Of a stretch of DNA of 60,337 nt, positions 3,492 to 26,479 are shown in pieces. Position numbers and translations under genes: made by a program. This DNA is from Candidatus Moraniibacteriota bacterium (lineage in GTDB: Bacteria; Patescibacteriota; Minisyncoccia; Moranbacterales; GWC2-37-73), in NCBI GenBank assembly GCA_035325685.1, contig DAOKZJ010000002.1:7309-67645 (forward strand), given 5' to 3'. Every line of letters begins with the position of its first letter. The stretch's first letter is position 1. The notes beneath the pieces are model-generated. The model worked only from the letters and a program-made list of their open reading frames with translations. It was not told where the DNA came from and made no database searches.

Positions 3492-4409
3492 ATGGCGCAA
3501 CAATTCGGATTGGGTAAGGGCCTTTCCTCCCTCATTCCCAATAAGCAAGTTACGGGCGGTGCGGGCGACGATTTCGTATCTGCTGATTTTGAGAAGAAAA
3601 GGGGATCTTCTGGGGAAAATCAGGTGCGTGGTGATAAATATGTGGTTGAAGTGGATATCGACCATGTGGTGCCCAATCCGCATCAGCCCAGGCTTGTTTT
3701 TGACGACATTAAGCTTCAGGAACTTTCCGATTCAATCAAGCAACACGGGGTTATCCAGCCCTTGGTGGTGAGCCGCTCCGGCGCGCTTTATGAACTTATT
3801 GCCGGGGAGCGTCGTTTGCAAGCCTCCAAGTTGGCGGGACTTAAGAAAGTTCCGGTGATTGTGCGCGACGCCGCCGAAAAGGAAAAACTGGAGCTGGCTA
3901 TTATCGAGAATGTGCAAAGGCACGATCTTAATCCGATAGAAGAGGCCAAGGCGTATCAAAAGCTCATGGAAAGCTACCAGCTCAGCCAGGAAGAGGTGGC
4001 GGCCAAGATGGGCAAGAGCCGCTCGCTTGTGGCCAATAAGGTGCGCCTGTTGGCTTTGCCGGCTGAAATCCAGCGCGCCCTTAGCGAGGGGCGGATAACC
4101 GAAGGGCATGCCAAGGCGATTTTGGCTCTGCCGAATGCCGAAAAGCAAAGAGCGCTTTTCGAACTGATTCTTAGGGGTAATTTGACGGTACGTGAAGCGG
4201 AAGACAAGACGCGGGAAGTGAAGGCGGCTTCTCACTTAAGGGTGCGCAAAGCCGATCCGGATATGCAAGCAATTCAAGATCGGATTACGGGTGCGCTCGG
4301 CACCAAAGTACGTCTTTTGCACTCAGGCAAGGGAGGAAGAATAATTATCGAATATTATTCCGCGGAAGATTTGGGATCCCTCTTGGATAAAATAGCTCCG
4401 GAAAATTAG
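3492..4409 (+). CDS. parB: Chromosome partitioning protein ParB/Spo0J
   Basis: MAQQFGLGKGLSSLIP N-terminus, GERR box (IAGERRLQA) and an HTH region. The ATG at 3492 is preferred to the repeat-embedded 3477. Confidence 0.93.
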   Translation: MAQQFGLGKGLSSLIPNKQVTGGAGDDFVSADFEKKRGSSGENQVRGDKYVVEVDIDHVVPNPHQPRLVFDDIKLQELSDSIKQHGVIQPLVVSRSGALYELIAGERRLQASKLAGLKKVPVIVRDAAEKEKLELAIIENVQRHDLNPIEEAKAYQKLMESYQLSQEEVAAKMGKSRSLVANKVRLLALPAEIQRALSEGRITEGHAKAILALPNAEKQRALFELILRGNLTVREAEDKTREVKAASHLRVRKADPDMQAIQDRITGALGTKVRLLHSGKGGRIIIEYYSAEDLGSLLDKIAPEN

Positions 4410-19958: not shown

Positions 19959-20100
19959 ATGTCGGGATTTTTTTGAAAACGCGCCCACTTTGGAGGCGGA
20001 TTTTTCGGGTAATATTGGACCCCTTTTTTTTCTTCTTTTGTTGGATCCCCTGCTTCGTTGCGTTGTGGATAACTTTGCACTTTGGCTTATTTGCGGCAAG

Positions 20101-20130
20101 TTGGCACAGTACTAGCTCTTGTGGTACAAT
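20101..20130 (+). promoter_or_regulatory. Candidate nrdR-nrdD promoter, TTGGCA-18-TACAAT with a TG extension
   Basis: TTGTGGTACAATG at 20118-20130. The same 13-mer recurs at 56601-56613. Confidence 0.4.
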
Positions 20131-20141
20131 GAGCCTGTAAT

Positions 20142-20157
20142 ACACAAGATGTTGTGG
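20142..20157 (+). promoter_or_regulatory. NrdR-box-like palindrome ACACAAGATGTTGTGG
   Basis: Resembles the 16-bp NrdR-box consensus (acaCwAtATaTwGtgt) and sits just downstream of the putative -10. Confidence 0.4.
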
Positions 20158-20303
20158 TTTTCGTCTAAAGTGCTCCAGATTTGGATGGCAAAAAACCGCT
20201 CTTGTCAAGTGCTTTTAAAAAACAAAGGAAAGATAAAAACCCCAGGGTTTGTAAAGTTCTTAACGCTTGGCGTTATAAACGGTATAAGCACTAACAAAGG
20301 TTT

Positions 20304-20753
20304 ATGATGTGTCCATTTTGCGCTCATGGTGATACCAAGGTGGTCGACTCGCGCTCAGTCAGTGATGGCAGGGCCATCCGCCGGAGGCGCGAGTGTGAAA
20401 AATGCCAAGCGCGTTTTTCCACGTACGAAGAGATGGAAATTATGCGGCTGACGGTTATCAAGCGCGGCGGTGCCCGCCAAGAATATGATCGGTCCAAATT
20501 GGAATCCGGTATCCGCAAAGCCTTGGAAAAGCGCCCGGTAGGCGAGGATCGAATACTTAGGATCGTGGGAGATGTGGAATACGAGATTCATGCGCGCGAA
20601 ACGCAAGAGATTTCCAGCAAAGAGATAGGGCGCATAGTGCTGGCTAAGCTCAAGGAAACAGACGAAGTGGCCTATTTGCGTTTTGCCAGCGTCTACAAGT
20701 CATTCAAGAGCGCCGAGAGCTTTCTGCGCGAAATGGAAAAGCTCAGCACTTGA
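20304..20753 (+). CDS. nrdR: Transcriptional repressor NrdR (Zn ribbon + ATP cone)
   Basis: MMCPFCAHGDTKVVDSR...CEKC. Confidence 0.94.
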   Translation: MMCPFCAHGDTKVVDSRSVSDGRAIRRRRECEKCQARFSTYEEMEIMRLTVIKRGGARQEYDRSKLESGIRKALEKRPVGEDRILRIVGDVEYEIHARETQEISSKEIGRIVLAKLKETDEVAYLRFASVYKSFKSAESFLREMEKLST

Positions 20754-20815
20754 AAATAAATTAAAGCAAAAAATAAATCAGCATTAATTAATTTCCGGGG
20801 GGAATACAAAACCGT

Positions 20816-23110
20816 ATGGCAGCGAAAACAAAAGCCGCTTCGCGAGCAAAGGCAAAAGCCAAAAAAACCAAAGTTTCCAGCAAGGTGTCGCAAAAGGCCT
20901 TGGCAAAGAAGGCTAAGGCGCCGAAAGCTGCCTTGAAAAAGCAGTCGTCCAAGAAGAAGGGGGCCGTTTCCAGGGCGCTTTCAACGGCAGGAATGAAAGT
21001 CATCAAGCGCAGCGGGCGCATGGTGCCTTTCGATCAAAAAAAGATAACTGTAGCGGTAGGTAAAGCCCTTGCGGTGACAGGCGAAGGATCCGCGGCGGAT
21101 GCCAAGAAAGTGAGTGACAAGGTTGTCCAGTTGCTCCAAAAAGGTGCCAAAAAAGGGTATGTGCCGCAGATCGAAGAGATTCAGGATCTCGTGGAGCGCG
21201 TGCTTATGATTTTGGATTTTGACGAAACGGCCAAGGCGTACATTTTGTACCGCGAGCAGCATCGCAAAATCCGCGAAACGGAGCAGTCCTTGGATGAAGC
21301 AGTTTCCTTGGTGGATAAATATATCGAGGAGATAGACTGGAAAGTGAAGGAAAACGCCAACATGGCCTATTCGCTGCAAGGATTGAACAATTACATTTCT
21401 TCCATCGTCAGCAGCAAATACTGGATGAACCGCGTGTATACCAAGGAAATTCGCGCGGCGCACGAAGGAGGAGATTTCCACATCCATGATCTTCAGCTGA
21501 TCGCGGCTTATTGTTGCGGCTGGGATTTGCAAGATCTTTTGCGCAGGGGATTTACGGGCGTGCCGGGCAAAGTGGCTTGCAAGCCCGCCAAGCATTTCGG
21601 CGCTGCCTTGGGACAGATGGTCAACTTCATCTATACGCTGCAAGGGGAAGTAGCGGGAGCCCAGGCTTTTGCCAACTTCGACACCTTGCTCGCTCCGTTT
21701 GTGCGCGTCGACAAACTTACATATCAGCAGGTCAAACAGGAAATCCAGTCATTCGTGTTTAATATGAATGTCTCCACCCGTGTGGGGTTCCAGACGCCTT
21801 TTTCCAACATCACCATGGATGTGATCCCCCCCAAGACATTGGCCAAGGAGGCGGTGCTTATCGGCGGGGTGCCGCAAAAAGAAACATACGGCGAGTTCCA
21901 AGAAGAGATGAACATGATCAATAAGGCTTTTGCCGAAGTGATGAGCGAAGGGGATGCCAATGGACGTATCTTTACTTTCCCTATCCCGACTTACAATATC
22001 GGCAAAAACTTCAACTGGGATGATGAGCGGTTTAATCCTATCTGGGAAATGACTGCCAAATACGGCATTCCTTATTTTGCCAACTTCATCAATTCGGACA
22101 TGGATCCCGATGATGCCAGATCCATGTGCTGCCGTCTGCGCCTGGATAACCGCGAGCTGCACAAGCGCGGCGGAGGCTTGTTCGGCGCCAACCCGCTTAC
22201 CGGTTCGGTGGGGGTGGTTACCATCAACTTGCCCAGGCTCGGGTATTTGGCCAAAGGCAAGCGGGATTTTTACAAAAAACTTGATTATCTGATGGATCTG
22301 GCCAAGGACAGCTTGGAAACCAAGCGCAAATTGGTCGAGGGTCTTACGGAAAAAGGTCTTTATCCCTATACTCGTTTCTACCTGGATGCCATCAAGATGC
22401 GCCGCGGCCAATATTGGGCTAACCACTTTTCCACGATCGGCTTGGTGGGGATGAATGAGGCATTGGTGAATTTGACCGGCAAGGATATCACCACCGTCGA
22501 AGGGCAGCAATTGGCGGAAGAGATCTTGGTGCATATGCGCGAGCGCATCACCGGATACCAGGAAAAGACCGGAAATTTGTACAATTTGGAAGCGACTCCG
22601 GCCGAAGGCACCGCTTATCGCCTGGCGCGCATCGACAAGCAGAAGTATCCGGAAATTATTTTCGCCAATGAAAAAGCGGTGCGTCAAGAAAGCGCCGAGC
22701 CGTATTATACCAACTCTTCGCAATTGCCGGTTTCCTTTACGGAAGATATCTTCGAAGCACTGGACTTGCAGGACAAATTGCAAACCAAATATACGGGAGG
22801 AACCGTGCTTCACGGATTCTTGGGGGAAAGACTTTGGGACATCACGGCAGTGAGAAAGTTGGTGCGTAAGATTGCCGAAAGTTACGCGCTGCCTTATTTT
22901 ACGCTGACTCCCACCTTCTCCATTTGCCCGATTCATGGATATATAGCGGGAGAGCATCACACCTGTCCCAAATGCGTGGTGGAGCAAGAAACGGAAGTTT
23001 ACTCGCGCGTGGTGGGCTATATCCGTCCGGTGGAGCAATGGAACAAGGGCAAGCGCACGGAATTTGATGACCGCAAGGAGTTTGTGGTGGAAAAGGGAAA
23101 CAAGAAATAA
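20816..23110 (+). CDS. nrdD: Anaerobic ribonucleoside-triphosphate reductase (class III) with a Lys/Ala-rich N-terminal tail, ATP cone, Zn site and glycyl-radical loop
   Basis: ATP cone MKVIKRSGRMVPFD, and the C-terminus CPIHG..CPKC..SRVVGYIRP. Confidence 0.96.
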   Translation: MAAKTKAASRAKAKAKKTKVSSKVSQKALAKKAKAPKAALKKQSSKKKGAVSRALSTAGMKVIKRSGRMVPFDQKKITVAVGKALAVTGEGSAADAKKVSDKVVQLLQKGAKKGYVPQIEEIQDLVERVLMILDFDETAKAYILYREQHRKIRETEQSLDEAVSLVDKYIEEIDWKVKENANMAYSLQGLNNYISSIVSSKYWMNRVYTKEIRAAHEGGDFHIHDLQLIAAYCCGWDLQDLLRRGFTGVPGKVACKPAKHFGAALGQMVNFIYTLQGEVAGAQAFANFDTLLAPFVRVDKLTYQQVKQEIQSFVFNMNVSTRVGFQTPFSNITMDVIPPKTLAKEAVLIGGVPQKETYGEFQEEMNMINKAFAEVMSEGDANGRIFTFPIPTYNIGKNFNWDDERFNPIWEMTAKYGIPYFANFINSDMDPDDARSMCCRLRLDNRELHKRGGGLFGANPLTGSVGVVTINLPRLGYLAKGKRDFYKKLDYLMDLAKDSLETKRKLVEGLTEKGLYPYTRFYLDAIKMRRGQYWANHFSTIGLVGMNEALVNLTGKDITTVEGQQLAEEILVHMRERITGYQEKTGNLYNLEATPAEGTAYRLARIDKQKYPEIIFANEKAVRQESAEPYYTNSSQLPVSFTEDIFEALDLQDKLQTKYTGGTVLHGFLGERLWDITAVRKLVRKIAESYALPYFTLTPTFSICPIHGYIAGEHHTCPKCVVEQETEVYSRVVGYIRPVEQWNKGKRTEFDDRKEFVVEKGNKK

Positions 23111-23232
23111 ACCCAAACAAAAAGACGCCCGGATATTTTCCAGTCCATGCCTTAAGCGGCCGCGTGGCACGGACAAGGAAGATTTCTGGAGCGATTGGAT
23201 AAGGTGCGCTAAAAAATAAAACGAAAAAACAT

Positions 23233-23502
23233 ATGGCAGAGAAATATATGTGCCACGATTGCGCCAAGGTCTTGGCTCGTGATGAGCAATACATGCCTTA
23301 CAAGGTGGGAAGCGATGTATATATCAAGTGTAAAGATTGTCACAAGGCGGATCCGGTGCTCAGGAACTTCCGCACGACCGAAGTTTACTCGCGCGTGGTG
23401 GGCTATATCCGTCCAGTGGAGCAATGGAACAAAGGCAAGCGCACCGAGTTTTCGGATCGCACGGAATTTGTGGTAGAGCAGGCGGCTTGCGCAAGTTGTT
23501 AA
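23233..23502 (+). CDS. Stand-alone Zn-ribbon + glycyl-radical-loop mini-protein (duplicate of the NrdD C-terminus)
   Basis: Intact 89-aa ORF. It has CHDC...CKDC followed by TEVYSRVVGYIRPVEQWNKGKRTEF, nearly identical to the NrdD tail. Confidence 0.7.
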   Translation: MAEKYMCHDCAKVLARDEQYMPYKVGSDVYIKCKDCHKADPVLRNFRTTEVYSRVVGYIRPVEQWNKGKRTEFSDRTEFVVEQAACASC

Positions 23503-23629
23503 AACGGCTTGACTGGAAAGAAAATGGGGGCAATCTTGCGTAGGCGGGGTTGCCTCGAATTTTCTAAGATCGCTGCGCCCAAGGCGTGCGGGCCGGCAAA
23601 ATTAAAAATTTGAAATTAAAATTACGCGT

Positions 23630-24328
23630 ATGCGTTTGGGTGGATTCCAAAAACTTACACTTATAGATTATCCCGGCAAGATTGCTACGACCGTGTTCAC
23701 GGTGGGTTGTTCTTTCCGTTGCGGTTTTTGCCATAATCCGGAACTGGTGCTTTCTGAAATGTTTCCACCGCTTTCAAATATGGAGCAGGATTTTTTTTCT
23801 TTTTTGGAAAAACGCAAGGGAAAGCTGGACGGCGTATGCATCACAGGCGGGGAGCCGACCATCCAGCCGGATATTTTGCCGTTTATGCGCCGCGTCAAAG
23901 AGCTGGGTTACGCTATAAAATTGGATTCCAACGGGACGCGTCCGGATGTTCTGCGCAAGGTTTTTGCCGAGGGCTTGGCTGATTACGTGGCTATGGATAT
24001 TAAAAGCAGTTTGGAAAATTATTCCTTGGCTGCGGGGGTGAAGGTGGATACGGCACGTATTGAGCGTAGCGTGGAGCTGATTCGCTGCAGCGGTTTGCCA
24101 TACGAATTCCGCACCACCGTGGTTCCGGCCATTCATACCGAACAGGATTTTAGCAAGATCGGGGAATGGCTTAACGGATCGCGCGCTTATTATTTGCAAG
24201 AATTTCGTCCGCAGCGCACGGTGGATCCGGCTTTTGGCAAAAAGAATGCCAAGCAGTTGGATCTGGATGCTATTTGTGCTGCCCTTAAGCCTAATTTTGC
24301 CAAAGTGGAGGTGCGCCGCAGTTTTTGA
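23630..24328 (+). CDS. nrdG: Anaerobic RNR activating radical-SAM protein
   Basis: CSFRCGFCHN cluster motif and GGEPT. Confidence 0.93.
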   Translation: MRLGGFQKLTLIDYPGKIATTVFTVGCSFRCGFCHNPELVLSEMFPPLSNMEQDFFSFLEKRKGKLDGVCITGGEPTIQPDILPFMRRVKELGYAIKLDSNGTRPDVLRKVFAEGLADYVAMDIKSSLENYSLAAGVKVDTARIERSVELIRCSGLPYEFRTTVVPAIHTEQDFSKIGEWLNGSRAYYLQEFRPQRTVDPAFGKKNAKQLDLDAICAALKPNFAKVEVRRSF

Positions 24329-24380
24329 GGCTGAAACAAGACGGTTGCTGCGTGCGTAAAAGTAAGAGAATCTTTTTTGT

Positions 24381-24698
24381 ATGCGTGATATGCGCGGAAT
24401 GGATGTTAAAATAGCGGTAGTTCTTTTTTTGAGCATAGTTTTTTTGGGAGCGTCTTGTTTGGCTTTTTCCCGCTCTTTGGTTGCCGTCAAAGAGGGCGAT
24501 ATAGTTACGTTGGTAGCTCAAAATGGGCGCTTAACCTTGGTTTTTCGGGAAAGGGAAGGAAGATGGCTCAAAGGAATTGCGCATGCGGCCTGGGGAAAAG
24601 TACTGGACTTTGCAACGGCCCATAATCCCGCCGGGGACACCATTCCGGATTGGTTGGATGATAAAGCGCGCGCCTGGGTGAAGGCGGCGGTTAATTAA
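24381..24698 (+). CDS. Hypothetical membrane-anchored protein
   Basis: The ORF has one N-terminal hydrophobic helix. No family was recognised. Confidence 0.5.
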   Translation: MRDMRGMDVKIAVVLFLSIVFLGASCLAFSRSLVAVKEGDIVTLVAQNGRLTLVFREREGRWLKGIAHAAWGKVLDFATAHNPAGDTIPDWLDDKARAWVKAAVN

Positions 24699-25093: not shown

Positions 25094-25124
25094 CGGGGCG
25101 ATAATTTTGGGGTGCAATTTTTTT

Positions 25125-25541
25125 ATGCGTAAATTGACGGTGGCCATTTTTGTTTCCTTGGCTCTTTTTTCTTTGGCTTATTTTGCCGGCCAGTTTTTTT
25201 CTGGCGGTGCGCAACATTTTTCTTCTTGGGGCTTCCCCGCTTCAGCGGACGATGATGAGGAGGATGAAGATGATGAAGATGATGATGAGGAAGAGGATGA
25301 AGAAGAGAAGGAGGAAAAGAAGGAATATCGCACGGAAACGGTGGTAGTGGAGCCTGCGCGCACAATCACAAAGACGGAGCTGCGCACGGTTACGCTTGCC
25401 GATTCGGACCGTGACGGTATTGTTGACGAGGATGATCCTTATCCGCAAATTTCCCAAATATACATAGTCCAAGACGGCGATGGGGATGGTATTTCGGACG
25501 AGCTGGAAAACATAGCTGCCGAAGTTCCTTTGGAAAAATAA
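25125..25541 (+). CDS. Secreted/anchored protein with a poly-Asp/Glu tract and two DxDxDG Ca-binding-type repeats
   Basis: Signal-like N-terminus MRKLTVAIFVSLALF, a run of about 30 acidic residues, and the motifs DSDRDGIVDEDD and DGDGDGISDE. Confidence 0.55.
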   Translation: MRKLTVAIFVSLALFSLAYFAGQFFSGGAQHFSSWGFPASADDDEEDEDDEDDDEEEDEEEKEEKKEYRTETVVVEPARTITKTELRTVTLADSDRDGIVDEDDPYPQISQIYIVQDGDGDGISDELENIAAEVPLEK

Positions 25542-25546
25542 TCCTT

Positions 25547-26479
25547 ATGCCGGGAGAAGAAAAAAAGAATGCGGTTTCGCTGGAGTTCGATGCTTTGGGT
25601 ACGCGAAACGAGGTCCGCCTTCTTTTTTCGGAGGGGACCAAAGAAGAAGCCCAGGAAGCTGCGCAAAAAATACGCGAAAAGTTCTATTCTTTCCAGGAGC
25701 GTTTTTCGCGGTTTATTCCGGAAAGCGAGCTCGGTTTTCTTAATGGCCGGATAGGACATTGGGAAAAAGCCAGTCCGGATTTTTTGTCGCTGGCAAAAAG
25801 AGCTCTTTGGGCTTATGATGAAACAAAGGGCCTTTTTGATCCGCGCGTCCTGGTTTTTTTGGAAGAAAGCGGATACGGGGAGGATTTTTTCGAAGGGAAT
25901 TTTGCTCGCCTTGGAAAACGGGACGGCGCCAATCCTTTCATCAGGCCGCTGGGCGAAGATCTGCAGATGGCTGGCGAAAAAATAAGATTGGGTGAGCGGA
26001 TGGATTTTGGGGGCATAGCCAAAGGATTCCTTACGGATCTCGTGGCGACTGAACTTTTTTCGCAAGGATGGAAAGATTTTTTGGTAGATTCCGGGGGGGA
26101 TATGTATCTTGCCGGAACAGGGGAGGATGGGAAGCCGTGGCGGATAGGTTTGGAAGGGCTCGAGGAGCAAGATTTACAGTTGCACCTTTCAATGATGGCT
26201 GTGGCCACGTCGGGCATATCCAGGCGCAAGTGGTTTTGGGAAGGAGAAAGGAAACACCATTTAATTGATCCGCGTTCTCCCGGTAGGTTCTCCTTTGATT
26301 TACGCAGCGTTTCGGTTATTGATTCAGGGGTGACGGAAGCTGAAGTTTGGGCTAAGGCGCTGTTTATCTTGGGAGCGGAGAAGGGTCTGAGCTTGGCCAG
26401 AAGAAAAGGATTGCCAGCTATTTTTCTAACTTATCGCTCCGGCGTACTTTATACTCCGGCAGTAAAAAAATTTCTATGA
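25547..26479 (+). CDS. apbE: FAD:protein FMN transferase (ApbE family)
   Basis: FGGIAKGFLTD and SGGD motifs. Confidence 0.85.
   Translation: MPGEEKKNAVSLEFDALGTRNEVRLLFSEGTKEEAQEAAQKIREKFYSFQERFSRFIPESELGFLNGRIGHWEKASPDFLSLAKRALWAYDETKGLFDPRVLVFLEESGYGEDFFEGNFARLGKRDGANPFIRPLGEDLQMAGEKIRLGERMDFGGIAKGFLTDLVATELFSQGWKDFLVDSGGDMYLAGTGEDGKPWRIGLEGLEEQDLQLHLSMMAVATSGISRRKWFWEGERKHHLIDPRSPGRFSFDLRSVSVIDSGVTEAEVWAKALFILGAEKGLSLARRKGLPAIFLTYRSGVLYTPAVKKFL

Follow-up and report, generated by a model that had tools for sequence, protein, structure and literature searches.

A candidate free-standing glycyl-radical module for class III ribonucleotide reductase encoded between nrdD and nrdG in a Moraniibacteriota genome

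We analyzed a 60,337-nucleotide (nt) stretch of DNA from a Candidatus Moraniibacteriota bacterium (contig DAOKZJ010000002.1; hereafter the window), which contains a class III ribonucleotide reductase (RNR) gene cluster with a small open reading frame (ORF) lodged between the genes for the catalytic subunit and its activase. All genes of the cluster lie on the forward strand. At its head is nrdR, encoding the transcriptional repressor of RNR genes (20304–20753; Pfam Zn_ribbon_NrdR 5e-21, ATP-cone 1.5e-19), whose position is unchanged in relatives. It is followed by nrdD, encoding the class III RNR catalytic subunit of 764 residues (20816–23110; Pfam NRDD 1.3e-198, ATP-cone 3.2e-23; NCBIfam NF006126 1076 bits), by the small ORF, a putative autonomous NrdD-type glycyl-radical module with an ATG start (23233–23502; Pfam NRDD 1.3e-11), and by nrdG, encoding a radical S-adenosylmethionine (SAM) activase of the NrdG2 type (23630–24328; NCBIfam TIGR02495 NrdG2 199 bits, cut-off 131; Pfam Radical_SAM 2.8e-18). 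An earlier note, made from the letters of the DNA alone, had described the small ORF as intact and suggested that its 89-residue product, here called the mini-protein, is a replaceable radical domain for NrdD. The ORF is indeed intact and its product ends in TEVYSRVVGYIRPVEQWNKGKRTEFSDRTEFVVEQAACASC. For comparison, 246 related loci (numbered with the prefix L) were gathered from genomes, metagenomes and viral contigs, 23 of them with the nrdD–mini–nrdG arrangement. The order ftsZ–nrdR–nrdD–mini–nrdG–x–apbE is common to the window and its close relatives L161 and L163, in every complete syntenic locus the mini gene is immediately followed by nrdG, and the spacer between nrdD and the mini gene is 21 nt in L163.

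NrdD consists of a Lys/Ala-rich N-terminal tail (residues 1–59), an ATP-cone, the catalytic barrel and a finger loop (SMCCRL, from residue 436); its relatives in the PDB are 8p23 and 4coi. The Zn site is formed by C704, H707, C717 and C720, arranged as C704-P-I-H...C717-P-K-C720, and the radical glycine is Gly734 (codon 23015–23017). The protein ends in TEVYSRVVGYIRPVEQWNKGKRTEFDDRKEFVVEKGNKK, as the earlier note had read it. The N-terminal extension (20816–20992), which precedes the ATP-cone, has 18 Lys and 16 Ala among its 59 residues (MAAKTKAASRAKAKAKKTKV...); Lys-rich tails are also present at the end of NrdD or of the mini-protein in L001, L002, L009 and L010.

A direct repeat, the top-ranking one of the region (106 nt, 87% identity, copies 386 nt apart), is made up of the final 34 codons of nrdD and of codons 49–82 of the mini gene. 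Copy 1 (22991–23096) is the 3′ end of nrdD, covering the glycyl-radical loop and the next helix (TEVYSRVVGYIRPVEQWNKGKRTEFDDRKEFVVE), and copy 2 (23377–23482) is the part of the mini-ORF that duplicates this loop, both on the forward strand, with a similarity that is kept by gene conversion, as described below. A recount reproduced the 87 identities in 99 positions reported earlier for 22994–23092 against 23380–23478, as well as the claim that the first 65 nt differ at two synonymous positions only, CCG/CCA (Pro) and AAG/AAA (Lys). Across the repeat, 10 codons are changed, 8 synonymously and 2 not (D/S and K/T). At the protein level, residues 49–84 of the mini-protein match NrdD residues 726–761 at 32 of 36 positions (89%; BLASTP, E = 2e-22), a similarity that is far beyond chance.

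Ahead of the loop the mini-protein carries a zinc ribbon, C7-x2-C10...C33-x2-C36 (codons 23251–23253, 23260–23262, 23329–23331 and 23338–23340), and its radical glycine, Gly57 (codon 23401–23403), lies within RVVGY. The earlier note was right that this CHDC...CKDC ribbon is the protein's own and precedes the loop; its further statement that the ribbon is unrelated to that of NrdD needs a small correction, because in a profile–profile alignment the second knuckle (CKDC) falls on the NrdD CPKC, with a 9-residue insertion. BLASTP similarity to NrdD is limited to residues 49–84, and the profile–profile alignment extends it to this second knuckle. In the comparison with family models that the note had proposed, Pfam NRDD matches the 89-residue product with 44.3 bits against a gathering threshold of 26.2, but residues 6–79 align to profile positions 510–562 of 562 only, i.e., the last 53. 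For NCBIfam TIGR02487 the score is 35.8 bits, below the cut-off of 326. The mini-protein ends in a further cysteine pair, C86-x2-C89 (codons 23488–23490 and 23497–23499), and the NrdD tail has no such pair. Patescibacteria mini-proteins almost invariably finish with one Cys or with two (CC, CxC or CxxC), a feature that is missing from the NrdD tails of the same genomes and from Desulfobacterota homologues and that recalls the reducing Cys pair at the C-terminus of class I and II RNRs.

An AlphaFold2 model of the mini-protein, based on 91 sequences, has a mean predicted local distance difference test score (pLDDT) of 81. It contains a ribbon-bearing β-hairpin (residues 20–33), a short helix, a second hairpin (50–53/58–61) with Gly57 at its tip, and a helix (62–72). 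The modeled fold has the form expected of a glycyl-radical finger. A Foldseek search of the model against the PDB gave no match at E ≤ 0.001, with generic ribosomal-protein zinc ribbons at the top and NrdD (4u3e) at rank 40, a result that is uninformative because the domain is so small. With 89 residues that are modeled as a Zn ribbon, one hairpin and one helix, the mini-protein lacks the ten-stranded catalytic barrel, the finger-loop cysteines and the nucleotide-binding sites of NrdD. The public label "anaerobic ribonucleoside-triphosphate reductase" is therefore a misnomer.

A search with the 89-residue product returned 309 small homologues. The best 120 of them are all 69–113 residues long, 57–83% identical, and from Patescibacteria metagenome bins (Moranbacteria, Parcubacteria, Paceibacterota); they are annotated as "hypothetical" or, wrongly, with that same label. 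A more distant Desulfobacterales member retrieved a further 697 proteins, and an exhaustive profile search against 1.8 billion representatives (50% identity) produced 994 matches at E ≤ 1e-10, the best 150 of which are almost all 42–160 residues long. The family comprises proteins of 45–160 residues in Patescibacteria, Desulfobacterota, phages and one archaeal virus. Pfam-A, NCBIfam and PHROGs hold no dedicated model for it; only the ends of full-length NrdD models match. In 91 aligned mini-proteins, the four ribbon cysteines (C7, C10, C33, C36) and G57 are invariant, and so are E50, Y52, S53, R54, V56, Y58, R60, P61, Q64, W65, N66, K69, E72 and R76. Positions matching these invariant residues are also invariant in 27 aligned NrdD tails.

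In the relatives that we surveyed, as the earlier note had proposed, the ORF is intact and syntenic, with conserved start and stop positions. Synonymous divergence (dS) is saturated even between the closest relatives (83% amino acid identity), which leaves most ratios of nonsynonymous to synonymous divergence (dN/dS) uncomputable; dN was therefore compared across neighboring genes. Among the window, L161 and L163, dN is 0.13–0.18 for the mini gene and 0.16–0.21 for its ribbon half alone, compared with 0.12–0.16 for nrdD, 0.21–0.31 for nrdG and 0.17–0.24 for nrdR; the ribbon half reaches 0.26 once the more distant L001 and L002 are added. Where it can be computed, dN/dS is 0.06–0.12. Judging from these rates, the mini gene is under purifying selection and is evolving as slowly as nrdD. 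For the ribbon half nrdD offers no source to copy from, yet the constraint is equal.

Gene conversion between the two copies of the loop was assessed in 15 genomes that combine an intact NrdD tail with a mini gene, using the 93 nt from EVYSR onward. Mean nucleotide identity is 0.84 between a genome's own tail and its own mini gene versus 0.71 between genomes, and at identical residues the same codon is used with a frequency of 0.68 versus 0.43. The tail and mini gene agree at 92 of 93 nt in L107, and their identity is 0.97 in L077, 0.92 in L021 and 0.89 in the window. In one metagenome-assembled genome (MAG) in which the two genes are unlinked (L017 and L048), the mini gene matches nrdD at 72 of 93 positions versus 81 of 93 for an orthologous mini gene, a weaker effect that fits proximity-driven conversion. 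The pattern indicates that the family is old and that the two copies inside one genome have been repeatedly homogenized, in independent genomes. Of the two explanations that had been offered for the near-identical core, selection or gene conversion, both apply, conversion recurring from genome to genome and accounting for the purely synonymous core differences. Either way, the module stays matched to the resident NrdD.

The state of NrdD itself in the 23 syntenic loci bears most directly on what the mini-protein does. NrdD is intact in 17 of them. In the other six (L003, L004, L008, L009, L010 and L081) it stops right after the Zn site, in short degenerate tails such as CPKCMADQGEKEYLKSDR, CPKCKAEQSSTVYLKVVMAD and EQKTEVFLKVGEEELREKQEKIIKK, each followed by a stop codon. 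These six loci contain no other Gly-loop motif besides that of the adjacent mini-protein, in which EVYSRVVGYIRPVxQWNKGK is perfect. The Gly-less NrdDs are 78–82% identical to the window NrdD over 640 residues, and because their finger loop (ARSMCCRLRLDNR) and Zn ligands are unchanged, the genes do not seem to be decaying. Five of them form one clade in the NrdD tree and L008 lies elsewhere, so the Gly loop has been lost at least twice independently. These locus states rest on MAG and metagenome assemblies; sequencing error is unlikely given six loci, differing tails and two clades. The truncated proteins end about where O2 scission would cut and may be regarded as genetic counterparts of NrdD after cleavage by oxygen, for which the mini-protein is the sole radical site. 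Since NrdD of these six relatives lacks the Gly loop, the mini-protein would have to act in trans.

At 16 further loci from many phyla, a break at this same boundary divides NrdD between a core gene and a gene of 45–100 residues; five are from Desulfuromonadales (L040, L044, L046, L064, L071), and the others are L032, L035, L056, L062, L065, L072, L075, L127, L142, L154 and L158. The small gene has its own Met and encodes the Gly loop only (e.g., MSTKCSAKTEVYSRVCGFFRPVQQWNKGK), and it often overlaps the core gene by 4–20 nt in another frame. Again, the gene structures suggest that the radical domain tolerates being a separate chain. In the Desulfuromonadales splits the core ends in ...CPEHG...CPH and the small ORF begins with M..KC; the fourth Zn ligand may therefore sit on the small chain, creating an inter-subunit zinc site. 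The two-gene split, in which a core without the Gly loop is complemented by a small ORF that supplies it, occurs in the six Gly-less loci and these 16 loci and does not occur in the window, where NrdD has its Gly734 loop. Other disruptions of nrdD were also seen. In L005 (3758–5954) and L077 (3821–5981), nrdD is present as two overlapping ORFs, through either an assembly frameshift or a real disruption, with mini gene and nrdG intact. NrdD ORFs of 1000–1670 residues occur in L053 (1138–6147), L045, L107, L121, L126, L156 and L237; the extra length consists of inteins in L053 (Pfam Intein_splicing, LAGLIDADG_3), and L107 has an insertion of about 450 residues without a Pfam match at E ≤ 1e-4.

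At 51 loci, in other Patescibacteria and in Desulfobacterota, a mini homologue has no nrdD or nrdG within 4–6 kb. These stand-alone proteins are about 95–120 residues long, 36–48% identical, and share the pattern CHDC...C..C plus EVYSRVVGYLRPVxQWNxGK. Their 93 immediate neighbors include 14 Fur-family regulators, 9 rubrerythrins, 7 Fe/Mn superoxide dismutases and 1 AhpC/peroxiredoxin, and genes for desulfoferrodoxin, hemerythrin and Rrf2 lie nearby. All 14 Fur-family genes are directly upstream of the mini gene on the same strand, and their products match PerR models best (E of about 1e-25 to 1e-30, compared with 1e-14 or weaker for Fur models), with scores below the NCBI cut-offs. Typical orders are PerR-like–mini–superoxide dismutase and PerR-like–mini–rubrerythrin–desulfoferrodoxin; in four of the Desulfobacterota loci inspected at the gene level (L022, L025, L028, L029), the mini gene is solitary, and L164 and L165, of the same type, are alike. 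A stress gene lies within 2.5 kb at 24 of the 51 stand-alone loci versus none of 105 nrdD loci, an imperfect control as the BLAST seeds came from few Patescibacteria. Upstream of the PerR-like genes, the PerR-box consensus of B. subtilis fits with 3.6 mismatches versus 4.4 in shuffled sequences, only slightly better. Just 5′ of the PerR-like gene that precedes the mini gene, a TTGAC is followed exactly 38 nt on by the lineage-specific palindrome AATAGTTAYTATT; this layout recurs in 6 of the 14 loci (L019, L088, L091, L094, L097 and L099), and the palindrome is, from its sequence and position, a likely autoregulatory operator.

Viruses carry the gene as well. A scan of IMG/VR yielded 80 loci (L167–L246), 72 of which have a mini-type ORF and no nrdD core detectable by BLAST within 4 kb. 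Some of the viral proteins have the zinc ribbon and others are ribbon-less (M..NGDLxLDNGxxIPAxKRxRTEVYSRVVGYLRPVxQWNKGKKAEWADR). At 35 viral loci, Pfam and PHROGs were used to identify the two flanking genes to either side; among these neighbors are terminase large subunit, portal, major capsid, head-morphogenesis, endonuclease VII and HNH endonuclease genes, and no NRDD family member is among the matches listed. Among the INPHARED phage genomes the single match is the ANME-1 archaeal virus ANMV-1 (KP703175.1, L247), in which positions 3872–4306 encode a 144-residue protein (AJP62049.1) with CHDC...CPKC and CEMYSRIVGYLRPVNQWNKGK. From these gene contexts, the viral versions may be auxiliary genes that help to sustain the anaerobic RNR of the host.

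Three lines of comparative evidence support a trans-acting module: the loci with Gly-less NrdD, the oxidative-stress neighborhoods of the stand-alone homologues, and the gene conversion between tail and mini gene. We put the probability that the mini-protein is a selected, trans-acting radical module for NrdD at about 0.8. The narrower claim, that this free-standing, NrdG-activatable glycyl-radical domain serves specifically in damage repair in this organism, we consider probable.

O2 cleaves glycyl-radical enzymes at the radical glycine, and in E. coli the small protein GrcA (YfiD) mimics the C-terminus of PflB and restores activity to cleaved pyruvate formate-lyase (PFL). We infer an analogous sequence of events here, with activation of the mini-protein by NrdG, docking into NrdD and a role in repair. 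Gene order and the 21-nt spacer in L163 suggest that the mini gene is co-expressed with nrdD and nrdG. The nrdG product would be expected to install a glycyl radical on both Gly734 of NrdD and Gly57 of the mini-protein, whose zinc ribbon would present the Gly57 hairpin to NrdG for SAM-dependent abstraction of the Cα hydrogen. That nrdG is the next gene, and that the mini-protein retains the recognition motif RVVGY and a Zn site, are indirect pointers to such activation. In T4 NrdD, according to Logan et al. 2003 (cited in PMC9669993), the Zn site reportedly lies ahead of the radical loop and the radical cannot be generated without it, which would explain why a module on a separate chain has its own ribbon. 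When O2 cuts NrdD at Gly734 and the enzyme loses its own radical domain, the mini-protein would take the vacated place: its radical hairpin, near-identical to NrdD 726–760, would insert into the barrel by the finger-loop cysteines (SMCCRL) and generate the thiyl radical. Such a substitution would bring activity back without resynthesis of the 764-residue enzyme, following the logic of GrcA/YfiD for PFL.

Several observations weigh against repair by a spare part: (i) Such a model assigns no role to the near-invariant Cys, or pair of Cys, at the C-terminus. (ii) A damaged NrdD would keep its own Zn ribbon, so that two ribbons would have to be accommodated. (iii) The window has no match to Fur, rubrerythrin, superoxide dismutase or desulfoferrodoxin and no stress regulator nearby, its NrdD is intact, and its mini gene lies inside the nrd operon; the data therefore fit constitutive use no less well than stress repair. 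(iv) The stress-operon evidence comes from other lineages, from relatives that are just 36–48% identical. (v) Co-occurrence of a stand-alone mini gene with nrdD and nrdG was checked in one MAG only (L017, L048). (vi) Every carrier is uncultured and all support is comparative; no cultured carrier with experimental data was found, all cluster members coming from MAGs or metagenomes.

The main rival, which has trans action in common with the reading we favor, is that the mini-protein is a constitutive second subunit, i.e., the normal or co-equal radical carrier of a two-piece class III RNR regardless of oxygen damage. The window would then represent an intermediate state in which the NrdD loop is redundant and on its way to loss. 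The six syntenic relatives that already lack the loop, the 16 loci with short two-gene splits, the position of the window mini gene inside an nrdR–nrdD–mini–nrdG cluster with a spacer of 21 nt in L163, and the lack of a stress regulator in the window all agree with it. However, both loops are intact in 17 of the 23 syntenic loci and the NrdD tail is equally constrained, and the PerR, superoxide dismutase and rubrerythrin neighborhoods of unlinked homologues point to conditional use. We regard a constitutive subunit as unlikely. A regulatory decoy, which would compete for NrdG or for the NrdD barrel and so damp or park radical formation, e.g., during oxygen exposure, has the recognition surface of the NrdD tail in its favor, and the stress-operon context could also fit a protective shut-off; but it cannot account for genomes whose NrdD has no Gly loop, where a radical could form on the mini-protein alone beside otherwise intact nrdD and nrdG genes, and a pure blocker would not need the radical glycine that is invariant in all homologues seen, viral ones included. 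We reject a pure decoy on these two grounds and consider decoy action of any kind very improbable. Finally, a functionless remnant of a partial tandem duplication of the nrdD 3′ end, ORF-like only through conversion from nrdD, would draw on the conversion that does occur between copies just 386 nt apart, but we reject it as extremely improbable because the family is old and diverged, with hundreds of members that include unlinked and viral copies beyond the reach of conversion, start and stop positions are conserved, and the N-terminal 48 residues have no nrdD donor, yet keep C7, C10, C33 and C36 invariant at a dN of 0.16–0.26 with dS saturated.

Two further features of the locus deserve mention. 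Between the mini-ORF and nrdG, a GC-rich hairpin of 13 pairs followed by a T-run (23527–23556, forward strand) is a possible attenuating terminator and a tentative part of the system. It was the only element noted in a promoter and terminator scan of 20100–24500, in which the numbers of sites did not exceed those in shuffled sequences (9 terminator-like sites versus 6.7 ± 2.6). Farther downstream, a 144-residue ORF (25107–25541) without a Pfam match starts with a signal-like segment, contains a stretch of about 35 Asp/Glu residues (DDDEEDEDDEDDDEEEDEEEKEEKK), and lies just 5′ of an ApbE-family gene (25547–26479).

Class III RNR is the only source of deoxyribonucleotides for many strict anaerobes and is irreversibly killed by oxygen. 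Beyond this locus, we lean slightly toward the broader view that class III RNRs have a widespread, unrecognized family of autonomous glycyl-radical proteins, serving as oxygen-damage spares in nrd operons, PerR-type stress operons and phages and as an obligatory radical subunit in some lineages. If this is true, class III RNR would be a two-component enzyme like class I, and the GrcA repair principle would extend beyond formate-lyases. A cheap, replaceable radical tip would explain both how Patescibacteria with tiny genomes and sulfate reducers survive oxygen pulses and why the module is present in phages. The natural pairs of Gly-less NrdD and mini-protein are ready-made constructs for studying inter-polypeptide radical transfer. 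The family also flags a systematic misannotation, that of 45–160-residue proteins named as anaerobic ribonucleoside-triphosphate reductase.

In the literature, only two PFL spare parts have been validated, others "may exist", and spare-part repair beyond PFL is raised explicitly as an open question (Andorfer et al. 2021, PMC8683613). A June 2026 review lists the formate-lyases as the only class of glycyl-radical enzymes with spare parts, and a family-wide analysis of RNR extensions (PMC9669993) uses "split" for class II alone. The earlier note knew of no NrdD counterpart of GrcA, and our full-text literature searches likewise brought up neither this protein nor any spare part for NrdD, split form of class III RNR or small protein of PerR regulons that resembles NrdD. 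The comparison of genomes, which indicates action in trans, makes the mini-protein the first candidate "spare part" for class III RNR. What would be new is the spare-part principle in another enzyme class, the presence of a zinc ribbon, and the existence of lineages where the module has apparently become obligatory.

Compared with known systems, the mini-protein resembles GrcA/YfiD of E. coli and Y06I of phage T4 (IPR011140, PF01228) in its small size and in reproducing the C-terminal radical domain of a large glycyl-radical enzyme, and by analogy it would be activated by its target's activase and replace the target's domain after O2 cleavage. Both kinds of protein are encoded by cells and by phages (PMC8683613), the viral mini-proteins mirroring T4 Y06I. 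Like GrcA, it is a stand-alone duplicate with a conserved glycine (89 residues, 32 of 36 identical, Gly57 invariant in 91 sequences), with NrdD rather than PFL as the target. Unlike GrcA, it derives from the NrdD tail (Pfam NRDD, PF13597); no Gly_radical or GrcA model matched it in Pfam and NCBIfam scans at E ≤ 1, which returned only NRDD and full-length NrdD models. Where the N-terminal half of YfiD is disordered, the mini-protein has a CxxC...CxxC zinc ribbon; its gene often lies between those of target and activase, and in some genomes it is the sole radical carrier. With the C-terminal domain of NrdD (T4, 1H7A; T. maritima, 4COI/4U3E; P. copri, 8P23) it shares the same invariant residues and a Zn site directly before the loop. 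Unlike NrdD, it is a separate polypeptide of 89 residues without a catalytic barrel, its first Zn knuckle and ribbon hairpin cannot be aligned, its knuckles are spaced by 22 residues rather than 9–11, and it has the extra terminal Cys pair. The split class II RNR NrdJa/NrdJb of Pseudomonas aeruginosa (PMC9669993) also has a C-terminal Zn-finger module in a separate gene and in this respect resembles the Gly-less NrdD loci; however, NrdJb belongs to a different RNR class with different chemistry and carries a reducing Cys tail, not a radical, and neither an intact-plus-spare state nor stress-operon copies have been described for that system. The mini-protein is a domain-level relative of NrdD and not an RNR, closest in its proposed function to GrcA/YfiD and Y06I but outside that family.

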